DNA from: an uncultured Planctomycetales bacterium | GTDB lineage: Bacteria > Omnitrophota > Gorgyraeia > Zapsychrales > JAHFFX01 | Direction: 5' to 3' | Assembly (NCBI GenBank): GCA_964464475.1 | Contig: CAYXGG010000004.1 | Coordinates: forward strand, 70,940-131,673 | DNA: 60,734 nucleotides | Shown here: positions 4,047 to 23,083 of the stretch, piece after piece | How positions within the stretch are numbered: position 1 is the first letter of the stretch | Layout of the letters: each line of letters begins with the position of its first letter | Notes under the pieces: model-generated | What the model was told of the DNA's origin: nothing | Seen by the model: only the letters and a program-made list of their open reading frames with translations | Database searches by the model: none | Translations under genes and position numbers: made by a program

Positions 4047-5984
4047 TTAAAATTCGAGGCTAAAGCCCCCTTCAAAATACCGACGGGGTAGAGGAAAATC
4101 AATATTGGACCAGTACTTGCTATTGGTGAGATTATGAATGCTGAAGAAAATTTTTCCATCCACATTGGCCCAAAAATCAACAAAGGCTTGTGATAGCTTA
4201 AAATCCCAAATGGGCTTGCGATCATTGGCCCTTAACGACGGCTCCGAACTCCAGCGGTTATATTGACCCAAAAGCTCGGCACTAAAACCCGTCACGCTAT
4301 GAAAATGCGCAGCTAACGAATATTTCTGCCGGGCGATTCCTTGATCACGCACGGAGCGACCTGTTTGCCGATTTTCCACATCATTAAATGCGCCGCTGGC
4401 CGAAAAAGACAGGGTCTCGGACCAATCGTAATCGAACGTCAACTCCGCTCCCTGCCGACGAAACTTACTAAAGTTTCTTTGTACATAGTAATTGGTAATA
4501 GGATCCTGGACCAACGCGATCGCGTCCCGGACATCTGACAAATAAAAATTAAGGTCCATGTTAAAATCATCCCCAAAAACGGTACTTCCCCCTAACTCGT
4601 ATACAGTGGCGCGCTCTGCTTCTAAATCGGGATTGGCCCCCACTTGAAATCCCGGATCAAAGTTATAAATCCACATCAAAGGTGGCGCGTTAAACACCCG
4701 GGAAATTTTTCCTCTGACCGAAGTCTCCGGCAGCTGGGCAAAACGATAGACCGACGCGAAACTAGGACTGGTTTGACTTCCGAATTGATCATTGCGGTCA
4801 TAACGAATGCCTGGGACAAATTCCCAGCCATTAACTTCTAACGAATAGTTCGCGAAAGGCGCCTGGGCGCTAATACCTTTGGCTTCAGACAAATAGCGAT
4901 TGGACTTGATCGTATGCCAATCAAAATCAGCGCCCATTACCAAAGCTCCAAAATCCGCAAAATCCTTATGACCATTAAGACTGATCCCTCGATAAAAATT
5001 ATTACTGATGGTCTCGAATTGCGACGCATTCGTTGAGACTGACTTTGTGTCGGTCGTAATATCTTGATGGTTAAACTTTAAAGCCACACTAAGAACATCG
5101 TCCCCATCCTCTCTGGAAAGGATCACTTGCCCGTAGCGCGCGTAATAAGGTTGAGTGGAATAATTGCTTGCCGTCTTTAACCCGTACTGAGCGAACGCGT
5201 CGTGATATCCGAACGTGCTTTGGATAATTCCCAAATCGCCTATAGGCAGGGACAATTTAGTCAACACACTCTTTTTTTCAGCCTCGCCAAATCGCTGAGG
5301 TCCATCGGTTTTATAATAACTTCCACTGGCGAAATAGCCCAATTCCTTAACTGATCCGGCTAGCGACAAACTCTCTTGAAACGTACCGAATTCCGCGAAC
5401 GAGCTGTTAAATTGACCGCTGACACGTTCCCCACCAGCGCTTTTGGTAATCACATTGACCACCCCGCCTAAACTAGAACCCCACGCGCTGGAAGCGCCGC
5501 CCTTAATGATCTCCACGCGTTCAATCATTTCCACAGGTATGGCGGAAGGATTAGCCTGCCCCGACAGTTGGGTATTGAAAGGAATGCCGTCAATCAACAG
5601 CAAAACTTGACGCGCATTGGAACCATTGAGAGATAACGCGGTCGATTGGCCGAATTGTCCATTCAATTGCACATCGATCGCGGGAGAATACGACAATACT
5701 TCGGTCAAATCCCGTGCCGGCAGTCGCTCAATGTCTTCGGCGGTAATTATCTCAACTTGTTCTGGACTATGTCGGGATTTACTTGGAGCACGGCGGGCCG
5801 TCACCACGACCGTATTTAATTCGTACAAAAATTTTGGCTTAATTTCAGCACTCTTAGAGGAAGGGGAAAAAGATGGTGAAGAACTGCTTAGGACAGCACT
5901 GTTTGCGTGTACTTGCCTACCCTGCAGAAAAACTTGTAAGACCATAATGACCCAAAAAATTCTTAATGCCTGACGAAACCTCAT
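4047..5984 (-). CDS. TonB-dependent outer-membrane receptor
   Basis: Signal peptide, then a plug region (VVVTARR...IERLPARDLTEVL...LNG...LIDGIP) and GGASSAWGSSLGGVVNVITK. It has a long beta-barrel and a C-terminal aromatic residue (..GGFSLEF). Confidence 0.9.
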   Translation of the reverse strand: MRFRQALRIFWVIMVLQVFLQGRQVHANSAVLSSSSPSFSPSSKSAEIKPKFLYELNTVVVTARRAPSKSRHSPEQVEIITAEDIERLPARDLTEVLSYSPAIDVQLNGQFGQSTALSLNGSNARQVLLLIDGIPFNTQLSGQANPSAIPVEMIERVEIIKGGASSAWGSSLGGVVNVITKSAGGERVSGQFNSSFAEFGTFQESLSLAGSVKELGYFASGSYYKTDGPQRFGEAEKKSVLTKLSLPIGDLGIIQSTFGYHDAFAQYGLKTASNYSTQPYYARYGQVILSREDGDDVLSVALKFNHQDITTDTKSVSTNASQFETISNNFYRGISLNGHKDFADFGALVMGADFDWHTIKSNRYLSEAKGISAQAPFANYSLEVNGWEFVPGIRYDRNDQFGSQTSPSFASVYRFAQLPETSVRGKISRVFNAPPLMWIYNFDPGFQVGANPDLEAERATVYELGGSTVFGDDFNMDLNFYLSDVRDAIALVQDPITNYYVQRNFSKFRRQGAELTFDYDWSETLSFSASGAFNDVENRQTGRSVRDQGIARQKYSLAAHFHSVTGFSAELLGQYNRWSSEPSLRANDRKPIWDFKLSQAFVDFWANVDGKIFFSIHNLTNSKYWSNIDFPLPRRYFEGGFSLEF

Positions 5985-6040
5985 AGCCAGCTAGATTTTT
6001 TCAAAGTCGATCATGATTTTATTAAAAATTGATAAATTAA

Positions 6041-6120
6041 TACCAAAATGAATGATTAAAGTGAACAAAGTAAATTTATTGTATACAATCGTAAATGATT
6101 GTAAACAAATGATTTATTAT
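6041..6120. promoter_or_regulatory. AT-rich region with repeated AATGAT(T) motifs 5' of the TonB receptor gene (possible Fur-type boxes)
   Basis: aaaatgaatgattaaa at 6045-6060, gtaaatgattgtaaacaaatgatttattat at 6091-6120. There is only a partial resemblance to GATAATGATAATCATTATC. Confidence 0.2.
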
Positions 6121-6124
6121 TTCA

Positions 6125-9121
6125 TTACCTTTTTAAGAATCCATTCTTCCGCCTTTTTTGCCACCAATATAGCAACATGAAAAACAGTAACCAGAAAGAA
6201 GGCTCCGGGACATTATATTCTTCTTCAAACTCCAATCCGGCTGAGGTTTTTATTCGTTGACGCTCTTTTTCTTTAAGAATTTTCCATTGCGAAGACCGTT
6301 CCAAAACAATAAAAGAGGTCGAGGGAATTAATACCGTAGCACTTTTACTGTCCGCAACCAATTGAGCAAGCTGCCGATCAATAGCGACCGGATTTAATAA
6401 AGCCATTTCATTACTCTGCCGCAACAATATTCCCCGATTATAAATTGAATCTTTAGAAACCTTAACGACTTCACCCATGGGAATAAATTTTTGAATATTT
6501 GAATCAAAAACCTCCCAGAGCGCCTCACTTCCGTCCTCCACAAAAGCCACTTGCCCCGCTGCCCCAGAGGCATCCACCTTTGATAGCAGGCCATTCTTTC
6601 TTAACACGATCCACGAACGGGCCATGCTCTTGGTCGCACTATTTGGATTTCTGCGTAGTTGCCCATCTCTTCCCAACACATAATAATTCTCGGCCTCAGG
6701 GTAAAAACCTCGTGACCAAATAGCTTTTTCGGATCTTAGAACTTTATCTTCCGCAGATGTAATAAATACAAAAATTGGCTCCGATAATACGCTACTGACA
6801 TTTTCCTTGTCCCACGCCATCTTGGCTTCAAAGACCAGCTGGCGAATGACCCGATCCAAATCCACCCCTCCCCGAGAATAAATTTTTCTTTGTGCGGCCG
6901 ACCATTGCTCCGCCAGTCTTTCAACCGGAATCATCGTTTCACTTATTGAAACGGTGTCTAAATTCGCTAACGTGACTCGACAATAACGTACGTCGGGAAA
7001 ATTCTGAACAGCGGCCTGCATCAACGCCAAATATTTCTTCTCATCCCAGGCCTTTGTGCCTAATGAATGATCCAAAATAAAATGAATATACGGAACTCGA
7101 TTGACTTGAGGTAGACGTTGGATCATCGGCGAGGGTAAAACAAGTGCGCTGGATTTTCCATCTGACAAAGATATCGGCTTTAACTGTTGAGTCTCACCAG
7201 TGGCTTCATTTAAAACGATCTCTTGCTCTTGCAATCTAACTTTAGGAAATATCCCCTTAGGATAAAGAAAATCAATCTGCACCACCCGCTCTTCCCCCGC
7301 TGCGAAAGGGAAGACATTTAAACTTAATTCACCAGGGGCGACGTATTTCAGTAACCCGGGATCTCGTCTAGTCCGGTCACGAATCATGTGATAGACCCAT
7401 TCCGCGGCCCGCCGCTCGAAGATTTGCCCCGGAACTATTTCCTCTCCAATCTTCAAACTAAAACCTGTAATGATCACTTCCTCAGGGACTATCAATGAAC
7501 CTTCAAACTCCGAGTTGATGACCCCGCTATTATTTTTAAGCACTAAGTTGAGTTGACTGCGATGCCAGGGACCTTCGACGCTTTCCCTCACGGACGTGCT
7601 AAGCACTGACACTTTTCTTTGTTCTTCTGTGGGTGGAGAATTAACACCTCTTTCACTCCACCACCGCCCCCGCATATCTTTATTCAATCCCCAAAAATGA
7701 TTCTGTTTTAACGGAGGAAGGTCTTCTCCGATAAAGAATTTGAATAAGTAATCAATTTTCTTATCAGGCAAAACCATGTTCTCAAAAACGATATGATTAT
7801 AAATTCCCGAAAGATAAGGTAACTGTAAACCGTATTTGAATTCTTTAAGATTGATGAGCGTCGCGCGTAACGCTTGCGGATTGCCTTGAAAGGAACGGTC
7901 TTTGCCGGCGAAATCAGGTGCATAAGCATAACGCAGGGCCTCTTTCAAATTAACCTTGGCATAAAACGCTTCTGCCACAAAATAAGTCGGAAATACCAGG
8001 ATTCCGGCTAATCCCAAAACAACCGTCCAGCGCAAACCGACCTGTCTTTGGGTTGCAAGAGCGTCCTGCCACCATCGTTGCGCGTGGATCATAAAAAGAA
8101 ATACCGGCACCAGAAAAAGAATGCCCGCACCTAATGCGAACATGGCCGGCAAAGCCAACGGTAAAAATGGCAAAAAAACTAAAAAGAAATAAAAGCTAAA
8201 CGGGAAAAAGATGCTGCGCGCCAAAAAAATCCACATACTATTTGAGAAACTTTTGTCCGTAGAAACGATCAACAATAATCCGTTAATAAGTGCTAAAACA
8301 TAAACCCACGGTGATTGAAAATCTGCCGGGAACGGGATTTGGCGATTCAGCATTAACCCACCGATGGGGCCGGCAATGCCTATAATCGCGTACAATAACG
8401 TTTGCCCCCAGCGGGCCCGAGCTTGCAGCGAATGATAAATCAAAACCAGCAAGCGGATCAACGCCATACAACTTAACAGAGTCAAGAGAACAAAGAATCC
8501 CGTGGCCACCAACGCCGGCCAACGAAAATTCCAGCGAGATATGAGGAAAAGCACGTAATAGGCTGCCGGTGCTAGCACCGCGATGCTGATGGTTCTGAAA
8601 TATTCGTCTTTGCGCGACCACCCCCAAGAAAAACAAGCTAATCGAACACCGCAATAGAAAATAGCGGGCATCATAAAAGTGAATTGCTGTAACGTCCAAT
8701 CTCCGGAATCTAAAATCCAGGGCTCAATGCTGCTGGGCAAAATACGAAATTGATGCGTCGCCCAAAACCACAAGTAGCCCACGCACCCCAACAACATCGC
8801 CGCGCACCATTTCCAAAACTGGCTACCTTGACCCCGATGTGCCTTCCCCCACGCAACAAAAGCTAAACCTAACAAAAACACTTCCCAACTCAAACTCATA
8901 AGAATCAACTGCCGAGCAGAAAACGAAAATAAATCAAAATAATTAACGTTACCTAACAAGTCCTTCGTGGCCGTCTCATCCCAAATGATCCCGTAGGCCC
9001 GCCCATTAATGAGGAGTAGGACCAATTGCGGCAACAGGCAGGTCCACCACCAACACGCAGGATGGTTGAAGATCGTCGGTAATAATGAATTAGGACTTTT
9101 CAAAGAAGATTGTTGTTCCAT
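6125..9121 (-). CDS. polytopic membrane protein with VIT-like domain and C-terminal PEP-CTERM sorting signal (exosortase substrate)
   Basis: The N-terminal ~400 aa are very hydrophobic with many TM helices. The central region resembles a VIT domain (ITGFSLKIGEEIVPGQIFERRAAEWVY...DPGLLKY..PGELSLNVFPFAAGEERVVQIDFLYP). The C-terminus NVPEPSFWLLFFMLLYWWQKRRKNGFLKR reads as PEP, then a TM helix, then a basic cluster. The ORF track starts at TTG 9157. The first ATG is 9121, which overlaps the exosortase stop by 32 nt. Confidence 0.75.
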   Translation of the reverse strand: MEQQSSLKSPNSLLPTIFNHPACWWWTCLLPQLVLLLINGRAYGIIWDETATKDLLGNVNYFDLFSFSARQLILMSLSWEVFLLGLAFVAWGKAHRGQGSQFWKWCAAMLLGCVGYLWFWATHQFRILPSSIEPWILDSGDWTLQQFTFMMPAIFYCGVRLACFSWGWSRKDEYFRTISIAVLAPAAYYVLFLISRWNFRWPALVATGFFVLLTLLSCMALIRLLVLIYHSLQARARWGQTLLYAIIGIAGPIGGLMLNRQIPFPADFQSPWVYVLALINGLLLIVSTDKSFSNSMWIFLARSIFFPFSFYFFLVFLPFLPLALPAMFALGAGILFLVPVFLFMIHAQRWWQDALATQRQVGLRWTVVLGLAGILVFPTYFVAEAFYAKVNLKEALRYAYAPDFAGKDRSFQGNPQALRATLINLKEFKYGLQLPYLSGIYNHIVFENMVLPDKKIDYLFKFFIGEDLPPLKQNHFWGLNKDMRGRWWSERGVNSPPTEEQRKVSVLSTSVRESVEGPWHRSQLNLVLKNNSGVINSEFEGSLIVPEEVIITGFSLKIGEEIVPGQIFERRAAEWVYHMIRDRTRRDPGLLKYVAPGELSLNVFPFAAGEERVVQIDFLYPKGIFPKVRLQEQEIVLNEATGETQQLKPISLSDGKSSALVLPSPMIQRLPQVNRVPYIHFILDHSLGTKAWDEKKYLALMQAAVQNFPDVRYCRVTLANLDTVSISETMIPVERLAEQWSAAQRKIYSRGGVDLDRVIRQLVFEAKMAWDKENVSSVLSEPIFVFITSAEDKVLRSEKAIWSRGFYPEAENYYVLGRDGQLRRNPNSATKSMARSWIVLRKNGLLSKVDASGAAGQVAFVEDGSEALWEVFDSNIQKFIPMGEVVKVSKDSIYNRGILLRQSNEMALLNPVAIDRQLAQLVADSKSATVLIPSTSFIVLERSSQWKILKEKERQRIKTSAGLEFEEEYNVPEPSFWLLFFMLLYWWQKRRKNGFLKR

Positions 9122-9641
9122 GGGGACGAAACCTTTCCAAAATGATTGAATAGCCAATAAGCAAACTTAAAAAAACACTGATTCCCACGCCTTGATGCAG
9201 AGCGCCCATATACAGGCTTGGCAAAACCGGCTTAAGCCAACTCTCGACATAAAATAAAGAAATGATCCTTAAACTATTAGCTAAAATTGTCAGCAAGTAA
9301 CCCATGCCTAATCCTAACAACAGGCGTCGCGGCATAAACCAAGAAAGTCGATCATAATCATAAAAAAGCCAGACACCCACTGTCAGGGCGAAGAAGTTTA
9401 TCCCTATACAGGCCGGCACAATCTGAATCAACCCCGCCCCCAAAGGTAGGACATAATAATTTTCCGCATTCATTCGTGGATCCACGCCAAAGAAAAAACC
9501 AACCAGGTGCGCGGTTGGACAAGCAAAAAAAGAATAGAAGATAGGTTCGAATTTGGAAAGAAAATGGGCGAGTCCGGCGCTCACCGCCAAAGCCACGACC
9601 GCCGGGCTCGCCCTTCCCACCTTTAATAAAACGGCCTTCAT
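9090..9641 (-). CDS. minimal exosortase-family transpeptidase (183 aa)
   Basis: Hydrophobic multi-TM protein carrying the exosortase/archaeosortase Cys-Arg-His signature in order: IQIVPACIGINFF, LTILANSLRIISLF, GALHQGVGISVF. Its ATG overlaps the upstream stop (ATGA). Confidence 0.7.
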   Translation of the reverse strand: MKAVLLKVGRASPAVVALAVSAGLAHFLSKFEPIFYSFFACPTAHLVGFFFGVDPRMNAENYYVLPLGAGLIQIVPACIGINFFALTVGVWLFYDYDRLSWFMPRRLLLGLGMGYLLTILANSLRIISLFYVESWLKPVLPSLYMGALHQGVGISVFLSLLIGYSIILERFRPHGTTIFFEKS

Positions 9642-9871
9642 GCCGCAACCTCTCGAACTATCTCCTTCTGGCCTTGCAACAAGATGGCCATGCTAATGGA
9701 CCCAGCCGCGTACAGCACGGCTCCGGCGAGAAAAATGACCCCTGCGGCCAAAATGATCCACAGGTTAACCGACAACAAATAAGGAACACACAACAACATC
9801 CCAAAGCCACCCCCTGCGATCGCGACTACCGCGAGGGCCCGATTCAACATAGTGATAAATTCCTGAGTCAT
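9638..9871 (-). CDS. small two-TM membrane protein
   Basis: MTQEFITMLNRALAVVAIAGGGFGMLLCVPYLL...; GGGGGTG lies 5' of ATG 9871 (the ORF track starts at GTG 9880). The stop overlaps the exosortase ATG. Confidence 0.45.
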   Translation of the reverse strand: MTQEFITMLNRALAVVAIAGGGFGMLLCVPYLLSVNLWIILAAGVIFLAGAVLYAAGSISMAILLQGQKEIVREVAA

Positions 9872-9895
9872 GGTCTTCACCCCCCTTCTAAATTA

Positions 9896-11263
9896 TTAAC
9901 GCCAATAATCTTTATTCAGCCAACCCTGAAAAGAGTTCCATAACAAATAACCTGACATCATCAATAACACGGCGATTTGCCCAAGCATCACGCTTACCGT
10001 AAAAGCGCCACAGGAATAGATCATAAATAGTAGTAGCATTCCTAATAAGAAACCATGCCCCGTGATCCAGCCGACATTATCCACACAGGACAAACGCAAC
10101 AGCCAGGCCAAAGCGACCAACCCCACCACGCCCGTCAACAGCAACAAAATCCAGAACCTTACTTCGCCAAAAATTTCCGGTTCGACAAAAAATTGCGGCA
10201 ATAGCCCAAAGCAGATAACGAATAGTAACCAACATTCAAAATATCCTACCAATAATGATAAACCCATTTGTTGGCTCCATTGCCTTCGGGTGATTGGTTT
10301 AAGCAAATCATATCCCCACGCAGACAACCGACGTGGCTGACTCCAAAGCAATAACAAAACGGGCGTTGTCGATAACAACAAAAAATTAGCGAAAGGATTA
10401 CCCCAACGCAACCACTGACTTTGGTCTGAGTTAAAAAAATAACTATACGCGGGCCAAAGCAACAACATCACGACCCATAAGCCGGAATAATTAAAGAATC
10501 CAGCACGGTTCCAATGCTGAGCTTGTGCCAAAAGATTCCCTGCCCTTGGGAAAGGAGGCATCTCTAAAACAGTCTTTGATTTAAAGATTTTCCCCCAATG
10601 AATAAACCCTGCGGGGGCTCGCCATCGAGTCATTCGCTCGATAGGCCAAGACAACAGATAATCAAACTCCCACCGCTCTTCTTTAATCAGGAATAACCTC
10701 ATCACCAAAGACCCTAACAGGGCATAAAACGCCAGTTGAAACAATAAAGAGACTTCGGTGTTAACATCGAGCCAAGCTAAAAGAGGATGGAAAAATATCG
10801 CCAAAATCATTAACCCCGCGTAGGCGTATAACAGCAAAGAGGGAATAGATAAATATCCCAACCACATCAGAACTGCGCCAAAGAACAAACTACCCCAGAA
10901 AACCGCTGCTAAATTCTTGCAAACCAAAGTTAATGTTGATTGAGACAACCATCCCCAACAGAAAATCATCATGACCCCCAATGACAACAAAATCGCGATA
11001 GCGATTAAATGACGCGACCGATAATGCGGCAACAAGCTAGCCGCTGACCGTGTAAATTGAGATTTCAACAAAATTCCAAAATGAAAGCTTAACCACATCC
11101 CAGACATCAACAGTAAAGTAAAAAAATCATCGGCCAAGGCATCATAACGCTGACTCAAAGCCCATAAGGAGCTAAGCAAAGCGCCGAGGAAAATAGTAAC
11201 CGCAAGGCCAATGACCGGCTGTTTGGCATATAATCCCCAAATGGGTCTTAATGACTGAATCAT
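9896..11263 (-). CDS. polytopic membrane protein, putative permease partner of the adjacent ABC ATPase
   Basis: About 455 aa and almost entirely hydrophobic helices. ATG 11263 overlaps the ATPase TGA (cgATGAttcag), which suggests translational coupling. I recognise no motif. Confidence 0.5.
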   Translation of the reverse strand: MIQSLRPIWGLYAKQPVIGLAVTIFLGALLSSLWALSQRYDALADDFFTLLLMSGMWLSFHFGILLKSQFTRSAASLLPHYRSRHLIAIAILLSLGVMMIFCWGWLSQSTLTLVCKNLAAVFWGSLFFGAVLMWLGYLSIPSLLLYAYAGLMILAIFFHPLLAWLDVNTEVSLLFQLAFYALLGSLVMRLFLIKEERWEFDYLLSWPIERMTRWRAPAGFIHWGKIFKSKTVLEMPPFPRAGNLLAQAQHWNRAGFFNYSGLWVVMLLLWPAYSYFFNSDQSQWLRWGNPFANFLLLSTTPVLLLLWSQPRRLSAWGYDLLKPITRRQWSQQMGLSLLVGYFECWLLFVICFGLLPQFFVEPEIFGEVRFWILLLLTGVVGLVALAWLLRLSCVDNVGWITGHGFLLGMLLLFMIYSCGAFTVSVMLGQIAVLLMMSGYLLWNSFQGWLNKDYWR

Positions 11264-12138
11264 CGATGTAACTCCAAGAATATCTCTTCCAGATTTAAAT
11301 CTTCGACCGAGACCTGAGCCGACCATCGCGCTTGCAAGTCGGTAATCAACGCTTCATTAAAATTCCTAACAGTTAATAACGCTTGGGCCCCCTGTATCTC
11401 CGAATGCATGATTCCCGGAATGGGCAACAAAGCGGATAGATCACGGTCACTATGTCCGCGCAACCTCTTAACCGTGTCCTTTAAATCATCCGTCTCTCCA
11501 TAAAAAGACACGGTTCCCCTCTTAAGCAGCACCACCCGATCAGCGACCCTTTCCAAATCCGAAGTGATATGCGTTGAAAAAACAATTGTGCAAGCACGCG
11601 TATTGATAATGTTTAACAAAGTCTTTAAAAAATTCCTACGGGACAACGGATCCAAACTTGCCACCGGCTCATCTAAGATCAACAATTCTGGTTCATGTCC
11701 CAAGGCCAATAAAATCATGACCATTTGCAATTGACCTTCCGAAAGCTCACCCATCTTTTGATCCCTAGACAATTCCCACTCATTTAATAAACGGTCTACT
11801 AACGAATGGTTCCAACGCTGATAAAACGACGCGGTGTAATTCACTAGTTCGATGACCGAAAGCCAAGAATAAACACGTTCGGACTGTGGCACGTAACCGA
11901 TTCGCTCTTTAGCTGCCGCGGAGAAAACCCAAGGGTTCTCTCCTAATGTCATGACCGTTCCTGAACTGGCTTTCATCAGCCCCAACAAGCATTTCATCAG
12001 AGTCGTCTTACCAGCCCCATTTTTCCCCAACAACCCCACCACTGTTCCTCTGGGGATTTGAAAGGATATCTCATTAAGTATTGATCGGTTCCCATAACTC
12101 TTGCTGAGTTGCGTACATTCAATCATTGAATCATTCAT
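11260..12138 (-). CDS. ABC transporter ATP-binding protein (YtrB-like)
   Basis: Walker A GKNGAGKTT, signature LSEGQLQ, Walker B LLILDEP. It overlaps the GntR gene stop by 8 nt. Confidence 0.9.
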   Translation of the reverse strand: MNDSMIECTQLSKSYGNRSILNEISFQIPRGTVVGLLGKNGAGKTTLMKCLLGLMKASSGTVMTLGENPWVFSAAAKERIGYVPQSERVYSWLSVIELVNYTASFYQRWNHSLVDRLLNEWELSRDQKMGELSEGQLQMVMILLALGHEPELLILDEPVASLDPLSRRNFLKTLLNIINTRACTIVFSTHITSDLERVADRVVLLKRGTVSFYGETDDLKDTVKRLRGHSDRDLSALLPIPGIMHSEIQGAQALLTVRNFNEALITDLQARWSAQVSVEDLNLEEIFLELHR

Positions 12139-12529
12139 TATTGTCCCTCCAAAGTTGTTCCCATAATTGCTGTACTTTCTTTCTATCTAACTGCAGCTGA
12201 TGCGCTCGACGGATCACTTCCTCTATATAAGGGACGATCTCTTCCTGCCGCTGAACGGATGATTTCCTCAAAGGAGCTATCGGGGCCAGTCGCATGCCTT
12301 CCCCGCGCACAAACTCCAGAACACCCTCTTTTTCCAATAATGAATAGGCCTTAGATACCGTCATGGGATTAATTTCTAAGGCCTCGGCTACTTGTCGGAC
12401 CGAAGGTAAGAATTCCTCCGCAGGCAGTCGTTCTGTCGCCGCGAGAATTTTGACCTGGTCCATCAATTGTCGATAAATAGGCACCCCCGAAGAGGGGGAA
12501 ATTTGAAATAAATGTTTGATATTGGTCAT
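12131..12529 (-). CDS. GntR-family transcriptional regulator, short YtrA-like subfamily
   Basis: 132 aa with a winged-helix region (PIYRQLMDQVK......LPSVRQVAEALEINPMTVSKAYSLLEKEGVLE.VRG.G). It has only a short C-terminal region and is followed by an ABC ATPase, as in ytrA-type operons. Confidence 0.85.
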   Translation of the reverse strand: MTNIKHLFQISPSSGVPIYRQLMDQVKILAATERLPAEEFLPSVRQVAEALEINPMTVSKAYSLLEKEGVLEFVRGEGMRLAPIAPLRKSSVQRQEEIVPYIEEVIRRAHQLQLDRKKVQQLWEQLWRDNNE

Positions 12530-12549
12530 TCAAAATCCTTTCAGCACCT

Positions 12550-12589
12550 CAACTGTATTATTTATATAATACACTAATACAGTTGTCAA
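12550..12589 (-). promoter_or_regulatory. sigma70-like promoter overlapped by an 11-bp perfect inverted repeat (candidate YtrA operator)
   Basis: Minus strand: TTGACA (12589-12584), 17 nt, TATAAA (12566-12561). The inverted repeat is caactgtatta (12550-12560) and taatacagttg (12575-12585). Confidence 0.4.
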
Positions 12590-12601: not shown

Positions 12602-12644
12602 TAAAAAAGGCCCTCAGGGCGGCCAACTGGCCGCCCCGAGGGCC
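12602..12644 (-). terminator. intrinsic terminator after the DUF2203-like gene
   Basis: GC-rich hairpin ggccctcagggcggcc-aact-ggccgccccgagggcc, followed on the minus strand by TTTTTT. Confidence 0.7.
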
Positions 12645-12658
12645 TGCAATACTTTTCC

Positions 12659-17799: not shown

Positions 17800-18072
17800 T
17801 TAACTTTTTTTAGAAAAAACTCTAGCTACCATCGAGATCGCTAAACCCGTTCCCAACAAAGACAAACTCATAGGTTCAGGATTATGAAACGTTTGCGCGC
17901 CAAAATTGGTTCCGCTATTGGCCGCTAACGCGGAACTCCCCGCCGCAGCTCCACCCCCGATAGAACCAAACAGCGCACCCAACGCGCCACTTCCGCCAGG
18001 ACCACAACCACTCAAACAAAAAACCATCACCAGGAGAGAAAAATCATTCGCTAACGAAATCATTTTTCGCAT
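17800..18072 (-). CDS. small Gly/Ala/Ser-rich lipoprotein with C-terminal PEP-CTERM signal
   Basis: The N-terminal signal has a lipobox (VFCLSGC). The low-complexity region is GPGGSGALGALFGSIGGGAAAGSSALAANSG. The C-terminus NPEPMSLSLLGTGLAISMVARVFSKKS reads as PEP, TM helix, basic tail. AGGAG lies 4 nt 5' of the ATG. Confidence 0.65.
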   Translation of the reverse strand: MRKMISLANDFSLLVMVFCLSGCGPGGSGALGALFGSIGGGAAAGSSALAANSGTNFGAQTFHNPEPMSLSLLGTGLAISMVARVFSKKS

Positions 18073-18679: not shown

Positions 18680-21600
18680 TTATGGCTCCACCGTTGTTTT
18701 TCTCAAAGGCGACAAAAGAATATAAATACAGGGAATGACGACTAACGTTAAAATGGTTGAAATCGTGATGCCCCCGATCACTACCGTGGCCATCGGTTTA
18801 AAGACTTCCGAACCCGGCCCCCAAGAAAGAGCCGGGGGAATTGCTGCGGCGACCGTAGCCAGCGAAGTCATGATAATAGGCCGCAATCGAATCGAGCCCG
18901 CTTCGGCCATGGCGTCAAAATAAGACTTGCCCTGTTCCCTCAACTGATTGGCGAACTCCACCAGCAAAATTGAATTCTTTTTGACCAACCCCATCAACAA
19001 AACAATACCGATAAAACTATAAATATTGATGGATTGCCCCGTTATCCATAAAGCAATAAACGCTCCCGAGATACTAAAAGGCATAGCGCACAAAATCGTA
19101 AATGGATCCAAATAGCTGTTGAATTGAGACGCAAGCACCATATAAGCCACCAAGACTCCCAGCCAAACAACAAGCCATAATCCGGAAAAAGACTCTTTAA
19201 ATATTTGGGTGTTTCCCGTCATTTCGAGTCGATAGCCTGATGGCAAAATTTTGGCTGCGATCTCTTTGACTCGGTTGACCGCGTCCGTCTGCGATTGCCC
19301 CGTGGCTACATTGGATTGAATCTTAATCGCGCGTTCGCGATTCTGGCGGGTCACGGTCATAGGAGTTTTCTCTTCCACGATTGAAATAACATCCTTGAGT
19401 TGCACACGTTCGCCAAACTGATTCCAGACCCACAACTCGGCAATATCCTGAATTTGTGTTCGCTGCGAAGGAATCAGCCGTACGCGAATATCATAGCGAC
19501 GGCCACCCTGGGTGTATTTACCAACCCTTTCACCCGCGAATAACGCATTGATGGTCGTCCCAATGGATTCGATGCTAACGCCTCGCTCGCTAGCCTTCTT
19601 TCGATCCGGAACAACCCGGACTTCGGAAACTCCCGCCTGAAAATTATTATTCACATCCGTGAAGATTTTATCCTCATTCATACGCTGCTCGATGAGCTCG
19701 CTATATTGAGCCAGCTCACTCCACTGGGGACCCAAAATCATAAACTCCACCGGAAATCCCCGTTGCGCCGAGAGACCACTTAAAGATGGATCCTGCACGA
19801 CTGCTTTAACTTGGGGAACCTGTTTTAAATCTTCTCTTAAGAAATTCATAAAATCCAAATGCGATGGACGCCTTTTAAAAGGCGGCACAATAGGACGATC
19901 TTGGGGTTCTTTCAAGGAAACAATGATTTGACCGCTATTAACTTCACCCCCGCCAAAACCTCCGACCGCTGCAAAAAAACTTTTGACTTCCGGGCGATCA
20001 GCCAAACGCTTTTCCACCGCTTTAAACTTCTGATCAGTAAATTCAATAGATGACCCCGGAGCCGTTTTAAGACGAATGAAAAGCATACTCTGGTCTTCGG
20101 AAGGTAACATTTCCTTTTTGATGAGACCCATCAGCCCCAAAGATGCCACAAAGAAAATTATCGAAACAAACACGATCCATCCCGGTCGACGCAACGATCG
20201 TCTCAGCAAATTTCCATACCCTTGACTTAATCGCTCCATCCCTTGATCCAATCCTTTTCCCAAAAATGACTTTCGTTCCCCCACGGACAAAAACTGTGAG
20301 CAACGCATGGGCGTAAATGTCAACGCCTCAAGCAATGAAATCGCCACCGCCACCGACAGCGTCACCCCAAACTGATAAAAGAATTTACCAATAGCACCCT
20401 GCATGAAAGCTACCGGCAAAAAGATAGCAATAATCGACAGCGAAGCGGCAATAGCCGCCGCCGCGATCTGCCGCGCTCCCTGTAGAGACGACTGACGATT
20501 GGTCAGCCCCATTTGACGATGCCTTACAATATTTTCCAAAACCATAATCGCGTCATCAACAATGATTCCAATCCCCAAAGAAAGCGCCATCATCGTGAAC
20601 GTGTTTAAAGTAAATCCTAAGAAATAAACAACGATGAACGTACCAAGAACTGAGGTGGGAATAGCCAATAAAATATTAAAGGTTGAACTCAAAGACCCTA
20701 AAAACATCCAGCAAACAATCGAAGTAATAATCGCAGAAAGGATCAAAGTAAATTTCAATTCATGGATGGCCTCTTTTACAAACTTCATGCGATTGACGGT
20801 AATCTCCACCTTAAACTCCGGTGGAATATCGCTTTGTATTTCTTGCAATCGCTTCTCCACCGCCTCGCCGACCGCTACTTCGTTAGACCCACGCTGTTTG
20901 CGAATGCCCATACCAACCGCCATTTCACCATTCTTGCGGGAAATACGGCGCACATCCGCCAATCCGTCCTCCACCCTCGCGACATCCTTGATTCGGATCG
21001 GTTTATAAACCGGTCGACCTCCGCGAGAGGAAATAACAATGTTTCCAAATTCCTCGGTATTTAGCGCTTCCCCCATGGAACGCACGTTCATTTCTAAACT
21101 GGACGTTTCCAAGCGTCCGGCTGGAATTTCAGAATGACCCTGCTGAATGGCGTGAATCACGTCCTGCACCGTCAACTCATGCTCATCGAGTTTCTGGGCA
21201 TCAATCCAAACCCGAAGATTGCGCTCTAAGAACCCGCCCAGAAAAACTTCTCCAACTCCCCGAATGGTGGTAAATCTGTCTTGTAAATGGTTTTGAACAT
21301 AATCCATGAGATGGCGGGTCGGCACATCTTTGCCCGACGCCGCGATCCAAATAATAGGCTGGTCTTCCGGATTGGTTTTGGTGACAATAGGTGGATCCAA
21401 TTCGCGCGGTAAAAAGCGCTGCGCTCCCGCGAGTTTAGTCTGAATTTCCTGAACTGCGACATCAATGTCCCGATCCAAATCAAATTCAACACTAACGTTG
21501 GCCAACCCCTGCATCACGTTAGAACTAATTTCGCGTATACCCTGGATCCCCGTGAGCGCCTGCTCAACAATGTCCACGACATCGGTTTCCATGACTTCCG

Positions 21601-21766
21601 GAGCCGCTCCCTCCCAAGTCAATCGCACCGACACCACGGGAAAATCTACATCCGGCAAACGACCCGTTCCTAGCCGAGTCAAACTCACTAAGCCGAAAAA
21701 CATGAGGCCCAGCATGAGCATCCACGCGAATACCGGCCGACGAATCGATAAATCAGAAATCCACAT
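18680..21766 (-). CDS. RND efflux permease (AcrB/HAE1-like)
   Basis: 1028 aa. Typical N-terminus MWISDLSIRRPVFAWMLMLGLMFFG, a 12-TM / two-large-loop organisation, and conserved GIIVDDAIMVLENI. Confidence 0.92.
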   Translation of the reverse strand: MWISDLSIRRPVFAWMLMLGLMFFGLVSLTRLGTGRLPDVDFPVVSVRLTWEGAAPEVMETDVVDIVEQALTGIQGIREISSNVMQGLANVSVEFDLDRDIDVAVQEIQTKLAGAQRFLPRELDPPIVTKTNPEDQPIIWIAASGKDVPTRHLMDYVQNHLQDRFTTIRGVGEVFLGGFLERNLRVWIDAQKLDEHELTVQDVIHAIQQGHSEIPAGRLETSSLEMNVRSMGEALNTEEFGNIVISSRGGRPVYKPIRIKDVARVEDGLADVRRISRKNGEMAVGMGIRKQRGSNEVAVGEAVEKRLQEIQSDIPPEFKVEITVNRMKFVKEAIHELKFTLILSAIITSIVCWMFLGSLSSTFNILLAIPTSVLGTFIVVYFLGFTLNTFTMMALSLGIGIIVDDAIMVLENIVRHRQMGLTNRQSSLQGARQIAAAAIAASLSIIAIFLPVAFMQGAIGKFFYQFGVTLSVAVAISLLEALTFTPMRCSQFLSVGERKSFLGKGLDQGMERLSQGYGNLLRRSLRRPGWIVFVSIIFFVASLGLMGLIKKEMLPSEDQSMLFIRLKTAPGSSIEFTDQKFKAVEKRLADRPEVKSFFAAVGGFGGGEVNSGQIIVSLKEPQDRPIVPPFKRRPSHLDFMNFLREDLKQVPQVKAVVQDPSLSGLSAQRGFPVEFMILGPQWSELAQYSELIEQRMNEDKIFTDVNNNFQAGVSEVRVVPDRKKASERGVSIESIGTTINALFAGERVGKYTQGGRRYDIRVRLIPSQRTQIQDIAELWVWNQFGERVQLKDVISIVEEKTPMTVTRQNRERAIKIQSNVATGQSQTDAVNRVKEIAAKILPSGYRLEMTGNTQIFKESFSGLWLVVWLGVLVAYMVLASQFNSYLDPFTILCAMPFSISGAFIALWITGQSINIYSFIGIVLLMGLVKKNSILLVEFANQLREQGKSYFDAMAEAGSIRLRPIIMTSLATVAAAIPPALSWGPGSEVFKPMATVVIGGITISTILTLVVIPCIYILLSPLRKTTVEP

Positions 21767-23012
21767 CAGTTAAGTCTCCTGCGGCAACCCGTAACGCCCA
21801 GTATAGACGGCGGGTCTCATTTTTTGTCGCGACAACAGCACGCCTGACATCCTGTAAATCTTGAATAGCTTCGAGAATGATCAAGTTATCCACCAGATTT
21901 AAATCATAATCGTTCAACAGCAAATCATGACTTTTCTCGGTTGCCGTCAACGCCTTTGTTAACGCCTGCAAGCGTTGCTGACTGGACTGAAAACGCGTCC
22001 AGGCATTTTCAACTTCAAGTTGTGCACTGCGACGGGCCAGCGCATACTGTAGTTCGGCTTGCCGGACCAATGAATTTTTTTCTTTAACCATGGCGCCGCT
22101 TTTGGGAATCCACATCAACGGCATCGAGAATTCCAGCGTCATATCCCAATCAACGTCATCAGCATTCCCAACACGCTTAGTAAAATAATTACCGTTTAAC
22201 TCCACTGTGGGTAACGCCTTAAGCCGTTCAACCGAAACAGCCTTACGAACACGTTCAATAGCTTTATCGGCAGCAAGGACGTCGGCCCGCAAACCAGCGT
22301 CAATTTCCGACGCCGAAGCATAGGTCATCCCAAAATCAAATGGTTCGTCTTCGATAAGAAACTCAATCGGCTTTCCGGTGAGAAAATGCAAAAGCTGGCG
22401 AGCTTCTGTTAATTTCCCCTTCTGGGTTTCCATATCGGCTTCCACTTGACTTAAGCGCGCTTGCGCGCCGGCGAGCTCGCTAGCACGGGCTTTCCCGAGA
22501 GACTCTCGCTTAGTCAATTCCTCCACCCGTTGATTCAAGGCGACCCGAACAGTCTCCAACGCGTCCAAATCTTCTTGGTACGTCAATTGTAAATAAAAAG
22601 CATTAGCCACATCCTGAAAGAGCAATTCTTTCGCGCGCCGAAGCGCCAGGTTAAATTGTTCCTTTTCATGGCGAACCGATTTCAACAAATTCAATTCTTG
22701 AAAACCACGAAAAAGCGTCTGGGTGAAGGAAAATCGAGCCTCAGGGACTTCTCCGAGAGAAAAATTATTTCGCCCACTACCATCCTGAATCTTTTGAGAA
22801 TAAATAAAATTGGCCTCCGGCAATAGACCCCGAAGGATTTGCTCAAAATGCAACCGAGCCTGGACGATAGCCTCCTCCTGAATCGCTATCTGTTCACTTT
22901 GCTGTAGGGCAAGATGATAACAGTCATTTAAATTCTCTGCGTGGGCGTTAATGCCCCGAAGCATCAAAAAAAGATTCACCCCCATAATAAAAAAAATAAA
23001 GCGTCTTCTCAT
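21753..23012 (-). CDS. TolC-like outer-membrane efflux protein (OEP family)
   Basis: Two-repeat coiled alpha/beta OEP pattern (LNDCYHLALQQSEQIAIQEEAIVQA...). The start is taken at ATG 23012, giving signal peptide MRRRFIFFIMGVNLFLML; the track ORF extends to 23078. The 3' end overlaps the RND start by 14 nt. Confidence 0.8.
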   Translation of the reverse strand: MRRRFIFFIMGVNLFLMLRGINAHAENLNDCYHLALQQSEQIAIQEEAIVQARLHFEQILRGLLPEANFIYSQKIQDGSGRNNFSLGEVPEARFSFTQTLFRGFQELNLLKSVRHEKEQFNLALRRAKELLFQDVANAFYLQLTYQEDLDALETVRVALNQRVEELTKRESLGKARASELAGAQARLSQVEADMETQKGKLTEARQLLHFLTGKPIEFLIEDEPFDFGMTYASASEIDAGLRADVLAADKAIERVRKAVSVERLKALPTVELNGNYFTKRVGNADDVDWDMTLEFSMPLMWIPKSGAMVKEKNSLVRQAELQYALARRSAQLEVENAWTRFQSSQQRLQALTKALTATEKSHDLLLNDYDLNLVDNLIILEAIQDLQDVRRAVVATKNETRRLYWALRVAAGDLTDVDF

Positions 23013-23083
23013 AAATTTGAACCCAAAATTATCAAAATCGGTTCGCTCGACTGAAAAACCAAGCCTCACCACTGACAATAATT

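Follow-up and report, generated by a model that had tools for sequence, protein, structure and literature searches.

Why should the genes for a short exosortase and its substrate lie at the end of an operon that opens with a transcriptional repressor and the ATPase of an ATP-binding cassette (ABC) transporter, and do the two halves of such an operon serve one process or merely share a promoter? The question is raised by a 60,734-nt stretch of DNA from an uncultured Planctomycetales bacterium, placed by GTDB in the Omnitrophota (GenBank assembly GCA_964464475.1, contig CAYXGG010000004.1, positions 70,940 to 131,673 of the forward strand), the whole of which is referred to here as the window. 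On its minus strand, between positions 6125 and 12529, six tightly packed open reading frames (ORFs) stand behind one promoter that carries a palindromic operator. We consider it probable that this cluster is a single autorepressed transcription unit, co-expressing an ABC-2/type V transporter and a dedicated sorting pair of the XrtK/MSEP-CTERM kind.

The first gene of the cluster (12131-12529) encodes a YtrA-type, that is short, GntR-family repressor of 132 residues, and is followed by an ABC ATPase of the ABC-2/type V class (11260-12138; 292 residues), a polytopic membrane protein of 455 residues that is a probable fused permease of six plus six helices (TM455; 9896-11263), a small two-helix membrane protein (TM80; 9638-9880; 80 residues from a GTG start, 77 from the ATG at 9871), a short XrtK-like exosortase (9090-9641; 183 residues) and an MSEP-CTERM protein of 998 residues (6125-9121), all on the minus strand. 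The first four genes are called here the GntR/ABC module and the last two the sorting pair. According to the coordinates, the stop of the GntR gene is overlapped by 8 nt by the start of the ATPase gene, an ATGA overlap couples the ATPase and TM455 genes, a gap of 15-24 nt precedes the TM80 gene, a second ATGA joins it to the exosortase gene, and the latter overlaps the start of the MSEP gene by 32 nt; the 8-nt overlap between the regulator and ATPase genes recurs in two related loci (L001 and L002). The first-pass annotation of this DNA had listed the same six genes, the same four overlaps and, ahead of them, a promoter overlapped by an 11-bp inverted repeat, all of which are present. An intrinsic terminator belonging to the upstream DUF2203 gene (12608-12645, minus strand), with a 17-pair stem of which 14 pairs are G-C and a following T run, marks the 5' boundary of the transcription unit, and we infer that the six genes are co-transcribed as one.

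A case for common control is made by the promoter and its operator (12550-12589, minus strand). The -35 hexamer, TTGACA (12584-12589), is separated by a 17-nt spacer from a -10 hexamer, TATAAA (12561-12566), a site that a consensus promoter scan overlooked solely because its rule demands a T at the sixth position of the -10 hexamer. The inverted repeat is perfect over 11 bp (12550-12560 and 12575-12585) and, together with a nested 8-bp repeat, spans the spacer, the -10 hexamer and the likely transcription start. In the window the operator consists of two direct TGTATTA boxes and one inverted TAATACA box, and the same layout occurs 5' of every related GntR gene, namely TTGACA, 3-5 nt, two direct (G)TGTAT(T/C)A boxes, 5-8 nt that include the -10 hexamer, and an inverted TA(A/G)TACA box. 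The motif TGTATYASTGTATTAY-N5-8-TARTACA has one match in the window (12554-12581) and none in 100 shuffles, and exactly one match, at the site 5' of the GntR gene, in each of 16 related loci, a combination that places the operator beyond chance. This 28-nt operator motif is found in 16 of the 21 module-bearing loci with upstream DNA, and the remaining five carry near-identical versions. As the operator has been kept while the neighbouring proteins are only 25-55% identical, autoregulation is indicated, and the sequences provide strong, if indirect, evidence that the operon is controlled by its own GntR at the predicted operator.

The regulator is a YtrA-type GntR, a type that is defined by the short size and the shape of the protein. 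It matches the Pfam GntR domain (PF00392) with 43 bits over residues 19-80 of 132, among NCBIfam models the short-type regulator that it matches is PmtR (42.7 bits), and the NCBIfam matches that score higher span only the helix-turn-helix domain shared with MocR/PdxR-type regulators. Its best solved structures are mostly GntR proteins of 113-134 residues (3by6, 4ham, 6sbs and 2du9). The features of the YtrA subfamily are all in place, with a winged helix-turn-helix followed by a very short C-terminal domain (about 120-135 residues in total), a first gene that precedes an ABC ATPase, and a palindromic predicted operator in its own promoter. By analogy with PmtR, the protein would bind the operator and be released by a ligand, possibly the substrate of the transporter itself. 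The ATPase (PF00005) finds its best NCBIfam matches in PmtA (171 bits), GldA and DrrA, all under the respective cut-offs, and the nearest solved nucleotide-binding domains are those of ABCA1/4/7, Rv1218c, NosF and ABCG; its nucleotide-binding domain is of the DrrA/ABCA/ABCG class, that is, ABC-2/type V.

At the other end of the operon, the 183-residue protein scores 39.5 bits with TIGR04178, the signature model of exosortases and archaeosortases, above the cut-off of 23, and its best specific model is XrtK (TIGR04287), at 47.2 bits, below the cut-off of 55. The earlier expectation that it would fit an exosortase subfamily model is in this way borne out for the superfamily and for the identity of the best model, and falls short at the XrtK threshold. 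The shortfall is not peculiar to the window, as the XrtK model gives 28-54 bits for the sampled homologues from Omnitrophota-type, Verrucomicrobiota and gammaproteobacterial loci and 115-130 bits for those sampled from Bacteroidota and Leptospiraceae. The curated XrtK model therefore covers just one branch of a wider family, although the partner substrates all match the MSEP-CTERM model, and, being too narrow, misses the sampled exosortases of the Planctomycetes-Verrucomicrobia-Chlamydiae (PVC) group, the Omnitrophota-type loci and the Gammaproteobacteria. On this comparison of profiles, the window enzyme belongs to a divergent XrtK-like branch that is common to PVC-group, Omnitrophota-like and gammaproteobacterial loci. 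A word-indexed protein search with the 183-residue sequence returned the query alone, and relatives were gathered by an exhaustive HMMER search and by locus-based profile searches. The former found 180 relatives among 1.84 billion representative proteins, the closest of them 42% identical and most about 130-250 residues long among the matches listed.

In an alignment of 66 homologues Cys78, Asn122 and Arg125 are invariant and His149 and Gly153 are conserved in 98%, forming a Cys motif, an Asn-x-x-Arg motif and a His-x-x-x-Gly motif; the Cys, Arg and His motifs that had been noticed in the single sequence are accordingly those conserved across these homologues. The catalytic candidates from this alignment are Cys78 (9408-9410), Arg125 (9267-9269) and His149 (9195-9197, all minus strand), and the enzyme is predicted to cleave the MSEP protein at its VPEP motif through Cys78.

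The 998-residue protein is a clear member of the MSEP-CTERM family, scoring 415 bits with TIGR04286 (cut-off 150) over model positions 12-916 of 920. It also contains a Pfam VIT domain (34 bits). The first-pass annotation had named two candidate pairings, XrtK with MSEP-CTERM and XrtN with a VIT protein, of which the former was the right one; the latter was rejected, the XrtN-system VIT model TIGR04477 reaching 50.4 bits against a cut-off of 250 and aligning with the VIT region only. An AlphaFold2 model computed from a 102-sequence alignment has high confidence (predicted local distance difference test, pLDDT, 89.6; predicted template modelling score, pTM, 0.90) and shows, from the N-terminus to the C-terminus, eleven long helices, a short linker, a beta-rich and alpha/beta region and a terminal helix. 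The 11 membrane helices of the model occupy residues 21-400 (7922-9061). They are followed by a VIT domain, a vWA-like domain and a helical module (residues ~500-960; 6242-7624), which together resemble the inter-alpha-inhibitor heavy chain (ITIH), and by the sorting signal, VPEP-helix-KRRK (residues 971-998; 6128-6211, all minus strand), in which the last helix of the model spans residues 976-992. The first-pass annotation had called this a PEP-CTERM protein, and its C-terminus does consist of a VPEP motif, a hydrophobic helix and a KRRK tail.

In a Foldseek search with the whole model, ITIH1 (6fpy) was found with E = 1.7e-10 over about 596 columns at a sequence identity of about 11%, after which vWA domains dominate the list; in that list, the 11-helix N-terminal domain has no structural relative. 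The metal-ion-dependent adhesion site (MIDAS) of the vWA-like domain is degenerate, its first residues (D684 and S686) being conserved and the rest of the motif not. The odd number of helices would place the ITIH-like module in the periplasm and return the VPEP-helix-KRRK tail to the cytoplasm, and if the model is right this is the topology that a substrate of an exosortase needs. A [PS]-[EA]-P motif is conserved in the family, with P974 present in 96 of 102 sequences, and the sorting motif varies by clade: Bacteroidota carry MSEP, Gammaproteobacteria carry TSEP, the Omnitrophota-type clade has TP[AE]P and the window itself reads VPEP, so that the tripartite signal is present here without the literal M-S-E-P signature.

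How far this arrangement is a property of more than one genome was assessed by comparing loci (denoted by L numbers) of which 80 came from one-genome-per-species contigs, nine from metagenomes, with TM455 as the query, and seven from exact-protein look-ups; neighbourhood clustering produced spurious clusters of antisense 'shadow' ORFs within the MSEP gene, which were disregarded. The closest MSEP homologues are found in Omnitrophota metagenome-assembled genomes, at no more than 39% identity. The exosortase/MSEP pair is almost universal in the approximately 90 related loci, in about 70 of them the gene for the short exosortase immediately precedes that for the MSEP protein, and the pair extends across Omnitrophota, Verrucomicrobiota, Lentisphaerota, Kiritimatiellia, Planctomycetota, Gammaproteobacteria, Leptospirales and Bacteroidota. 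The GntR-ABC-TM455-TM80 module precedes the pair only in Omnitrophota-type loci (L001, L002, L007, L009, L011, L012, L015, L023, L026, L088, L089, L092 and L094), and in a neighbour-joining tree of MSEP proteins the module-linked loci form one clade of eight lineages, at no more than 54% identity, with the window at its base. The six-gene order has been retained in one Omnitrophota-type clade, and the synteny of the GntR/ABC genes with the exosortase pair, which the first-pass annotation had proposed to look for in relatives, is found in many of them, all within this clade. None of the three checks set for that annotation, on the exosortase models, the catalytic residues and the synteny, went against it.

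From these components, a mechanism can be proposed. The YtrA-type repressor would occupy the operator across the promoter and hold the operon off; upon its release, an ABC-2 exporter, composed of the ATPase, TM455 and TM80, would be made together with the ITIH-like membrane protein and its private exosortase. The substrate would be held in the inner membrane by its 11 N-terminal helices, would display the VIT and vWA-like module in the periplasm and would send its C-terminal signal back into the membrane, where the exosortase, using Cys78, Arg125 and His149, would cut at VPEP and, in the way of sortases and archaeosortase A, hand the C-terminus so formed to an acceptor. In the version that we favour, the ABC system would export or present this acceptor, or would handle an envelope component on which the sorted protein acts; the two modules would then work together, with export linked to sorting.

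Several observations weigh against such a unit, concerning its distribution, its membrane protein and, as described above, the score of its enzyme with the XrtK model. GntR/ABC genes are missing from more than 60 exosortase/MSEP loci of other phyla, two members of the linked clade itself (L005 and L010, the only ones) lack the module, and three loci (L086, L093 and L095) carry GntR-ABC-TM455-TM80 with no exosortase in the available sequence. They speak for a rival reading in which the two modules have no functional connection and only their promoter in common, the ABC system being a generic envelope-stress or detoxification exporter downstream of which the sorting pair has landed. A GntR regulator followed by an ABC ATPase and a membrane protein is a very common stand-alone arrangement, as in the YtrA/PmtR-type operons, and it is to PmtR and PmtA that the best NCBIfam matches point; the pair, for its part, lives alone in most phyla. 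Against mere cohabitation stand the retention of the gene order in the eight lineages, in spite of their divergence, the position of TM80 after the MSEP gene in L001, where a gene of one module is interleaved with the other, and the insertion of further genes into the cluster without parting the modules. Two reduced loci tell a similar story, since L085 keeps the module and the exosortase with no MSEP gene, and L087 comprises the module, a 235-residue protein of unknown type, TM80 and a 112-residue exosortase fragment, with an insertion sequence (rve) transposase beside it; both look like decayed versions of the cluster.

A further tie is provided by a protein resembling linalool dehydratase/isomerase (Ldi-like). 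It is encoded directly 3' of the MSEP gene in L005 and near the pair in eight PVC-group loci that all lack the ABC module (L017, L019, L020, L034, L042, L053, L059 and L067), and it also follows the module in L095 and is fused at its C-terminus to TM80 in L086, a locus without the pair. As it is common to both modules, each independently of the other, it is the best argument that they act in one process. The position of TM80 in L001, the insertions that leave the cluster whole, the genes retained in L085 and L087 and the shared Ldi-like protein are all signs of a linkage beyond adjacency, and a mere sharing of the promoter, although we give it real weight, seems to us rather unlikely. Because each module also occurs apart from the other they are separable, yet to judge from these gene orders they have been kept together through deep divergence.

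Two terms of the first-pass annotation need trimming in consequence. It had described a self-contained sorting module for a single substrate, of which the dedicated pairing of enzyme and substrate is supported, while the linkage to the remaining genes is limited to one clade and a second PEP-CTERM ORF lies in the window at 17800-18072; and it had spoken of a dedicated ABC system, which is syntenic with the pair in that clade but is absent from the 60-odd other pair loci and is itself found without the pair. With a linkage confined to one clade and an ABC module that also occurs on its own, both 'self-contained' and 'dedicated' exceed the evidence.

The second set of contrary observations concerns TM455. 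The protein has no match in Pfam, NCBIfam, PADLOC or, by profile search, the sequences of the PDB, and a word-indexed protein search found three relatives. We favour the ATGA-coupled start, which gives 455 residues, since the relatives are 440-462 residues long; an alternative upstream ATG would give 476. The AlphaFold2 model, built from four sequences, is of low confidence (pLDDT 58.5) and contains two sets of six long helices, each with a short helix ahead of it. Its top Foldseek matches are type V permeases, namely Rv1217c (the partner of Rv1218c; TMq 0.42), CcmB, NosY and ABCG2, with the proviso that all matches to ABC permeases have E > 0.25 and are non-significant. An alignment of orthologues has 24 invariant columns. 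TM455 is probably a fused double (6+6-helix) ABC-2 permease that serves the ATPase. TM80 has two hydrophobic segments, matches no Pfam, NCBIfam or PADLOC family, and occurs in every TM455 locus with enough sequence.

The same weak matches allow a different role for the ATPase, TM455 and TM80, that of a mechanotransducer or an extractor comparable to FtsEX, LolCDE or LptB2FG, which would spend ATP on pulling the processed MSEP protein or its cleaved signal helix from the membrane, or on activating the exosortase. LptF/G and other extractor-type permeases are among the structural matches of TM455, the substrate is embedded in the membrane and its C-terminal helix must be removed, and in one subclade (L011, L012, L023 and L026) an M50B-like and a PrsW intramembrane protease are encoded between TM80 and the exosortase. 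The TM455 matches are, however, non-significant and come from a low-confidence model, the module also exists without any exosortase, and the nearest nucleotide-binding domains belong to lipid and drug exporters, so that we regard an extractor as unlikely and retain the exporter. The protease insertion, an M50B-like (HExxH) gene with a PrsW-family gene, lies at 7934-9534 in L011 and is also seen in L012, L023, L026, L088 and L089. Just upstream of the GntR gene of L011 (760-4581) is a gene for a 1273-residue protein with dozens of Cys-rich repeats (CC.Y…CG), which has no Pfam match.

If the ABC system is an exporter, what might it export? The window carries the minimal six genes only, with no accessory genes, and the available clues come from its relatives. 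Besides the Ldi-like protein, a B12-binding radical S-adenosylmethionine (radical-SAM) enzyme recurs, encoded between TM455 and TM80 in L012 (5190-6653) and after the module in L086 (7888-10859) and L095 (10791-12641); in these three loci it accompanies the GntR-ABC-TM455 module, usually with the Ldi-like protein. L005, the closest Omnitrophota relative without the ABC module, has a run of further genes behind its MSEP gene (the run at 5594-8513), for the Ldi-like protein, for a zinc-finger protein and for a CruF-like membrane protein of the 'carotenoid biosynthesis' family PF04240, a set that hints at isoprenoid chemistry. One could therefore imagine that the exporter flips or exports a lipid or isoprenoid-type molecule of the envelope and that the exosortase joins it covalently to the new C-terminus of the ITIH-like protein, in which case the radical-SAM enzyme, the Ldi-like alpha/alpha-barrel protein and the CruF-like protein of L005 would tailor the acceptor and the YtrA-type repressor would sense it. 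Bacteria would then have their own equivalent of the lipidation linked to archaeosortases, or of the esterification of ITIH to a glycan, and we hold so specific a version to be quite improbable.

Outside the linked clade, a regulator and a membrane protein accompany the pair in another guise. In L017 (7773-9423), with equivalents in L019, L034, L041-L043 and L053, a small winged-helix regulator (HTH_34) and a polytopic protein of about 410-500 residues precede the pair, and this layout of Verrucomicrobiota- and Lentisphaerota-type loci, in which a regulator, a membrane protein and the pair follow one another, is analogous to that of the window and built of unrelated parts.

A more conventional explanation would be an ordinary PEP-CTERM/exosortase A system for exopolysaccharide with its polysaccharide genes elsewhere, and the canonical VPEP motif of the window and a second small PEP-CTERM ORF about 9 kb away might be taken to favour it. 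The XrtA and XrtB models, however, give no score for the 183-residue enzyme, which is the short core only, about 70 loci show a one-to-one pairing of the enzyme with the MSEP gene, and neighbour annotation shows no polysaccharide-synthesis genes within about 10 kb of the operon, as the first-pass annotation had also remarked; this explanation is largely refuted and very improbable. The small ORF (17800-18072, minus strand) encodes about 90 residues that open with a signal peptide of the lipoprotein type (…FCLSGC), continue in a stretch rich in Gly, Ser and Ala and end in a canonical PEP-CTERM tail (NPEP-helix-SKKS), and it implies that the MSEP protein is not the only PEP-type substrate of the genome. 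A further candidate, an island for anti-phage defence or of the toxin-antitoxin kind centred on an AAA_21/ABC-like ATPase, is effectively refuted, since a PADLOC scan of the six proteins yielded matches of the ATPase alone (mad3, 97 bits, AriA and PtuA, besides Pfam AAA_21) that span only the generic nucleotide-binding fold, while the protein has a full transporter-type domain with far better matches to ABC transporters and the other five match no PADLOC model.

The wider neighbourhood of the operon comprises genes for a TonB-dependent receptor, a solute-binding protein, a radical-SAM enzyme, DUF2203, pirin, DUF547, a GH94-like protein and AcrB/OEP proteins. No terminator is predicted 3' of the MSEP gene, so that read-through from the operon is possible. 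Between the MSEP stop and the gene for the TonB-dependent receptor (4047-5984) lies an AT-rich spacer (5985-6124), which contains a promoter-like site (TTTACA-16-TACAAT) and short AATCATT-rich palindromes reminiscent of Fur boxes. About 6 kb upstream of the operon, the window encodes an AcrB-type efflux pump and an outer-membrane factor (18680-23078, minus strand), and in L002 (1-4412) an AcrB-type gene and an unannotated gene for 481 residues lie directly upstream of the GntR gene; these AcrB-type genes may be remnant synteny. The GC skew is negative in all 2-kb bins of the window (1-60734) and its minus strand holds 30 of 32 ORFs of at least 200 residues, so the entire window appears to lie in one replichore with its genes co-oriented.

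What does the locus add? It offers a structural reading of the substrate as a membrane-anchored module resembling the inter-alpha-inhibitor heavy chain, and in its operator, its ABC exporter and the recurrent accessory enzymes of its relatives it provides testable handles on when the system is turned on and what it acts on, although, the organisms being uncultured Omnitrophota-type bacteria, such tests must be heterologous. It is a first lead to the function of an unstudied sorting pair, a useful one that overturns nothing. In the searched literature we found nothing that names the XrtK/MSEP-CTERM pair or links an exosortase to YtrA regulators or to Omnitrophota, and no description of a fusion of exosortase and YtrA/ABC-2 genes, of its conserved operator or of its network of accessory genes. 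The pair thus appears to have been recorded so far only as a pairing of curated families, and the view taken at first reading, that the combination of GntR/ABC and exosortase genes had not been described, still holds for that literature.

The closest known relative is that curated pairing itself, XrtK with MSEP-CTERM (TIGR04287/TIGR04286), in which the gene for an exosortase of about 160-190 residues likewise lies directly 5' of, and overlaps, the gene for a substrate of about 950-1000 residues whose N-terminal half is polytopic and which also has a VIT domain and, at its C-terminus, a sorting signal. The window differs in that its enzyme falls under the XrtK cut-off, its clade has VPEP or TP[AE]P in place of MSEP, and the regulator/ABC operon is absent from the Bacteroidota loci. 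The VIT protein of the XrtN system (TIGR04477) and the marine proteobacterial sortase target (TIGR03788) are also single large VIT/vWA proteins with their own dedicated sorting transpeptidase; they differ from the window protein in sequence, scoring 50 bits against a cut-off of 250 and 17 against 552, with only the VIT region aligning, and that weakly. Beyond bacterial sorting systems, the VIT, vWA and C-terminal helical regions of ITIH1 (6fpy) align structurally with the MSEP protein. A propeptide is removed from the C-terminus of ITIH chains, and the end thus exposed is joined to a glycan through an ester bond, so that in concept their processing parallels the cleavage and transfer carried out by an exosortase; unlike ITIH, the MSEP protein has a degenerate MIDAS and is anchored by 11 membrane helices, and the processing enzymes are unrelated. 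Archaeosortase A and its PGF-CTERM substrates share with the window pair the enzyme superfamily (TIGR04178), the catalytic Cys and Arg residues and a tripartite C-terminal signal, and are unlike it in the signal motif, the length of the enzyme and the lineage. Processing by archaeosortase A is coupled to lipid attachment; to our knowledge, this has not been shown for any exosortase substrate of the XrtK/MSEP type.

For the regulated half of the operon, the models are PmtR-PmtABCD of Staphylococcus and YtrA-ytrBCDEF of Bacillus, each beginning with a gene for a GntR repressor of 120-135 residues that is translationally coupled to an ABC-2-class ATPase, and each with a palindromic operator in its own promoter, which in the window is predicted from sequence. 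The window proteins score under the equivalog cut-offs of these systems, one ATPase and the unrecognised 455-residue protein take the place of separate ABC-2 permeases, the setting is Gram-negative and PVC-type, and the operon runs on into a protein-sorting pair. The core of the locus is accordingly a divergent member of a catalogued pair, and what is new, as far as the searched literature shows, is its regulated, lineage-specific fusion with an ABC exporter.

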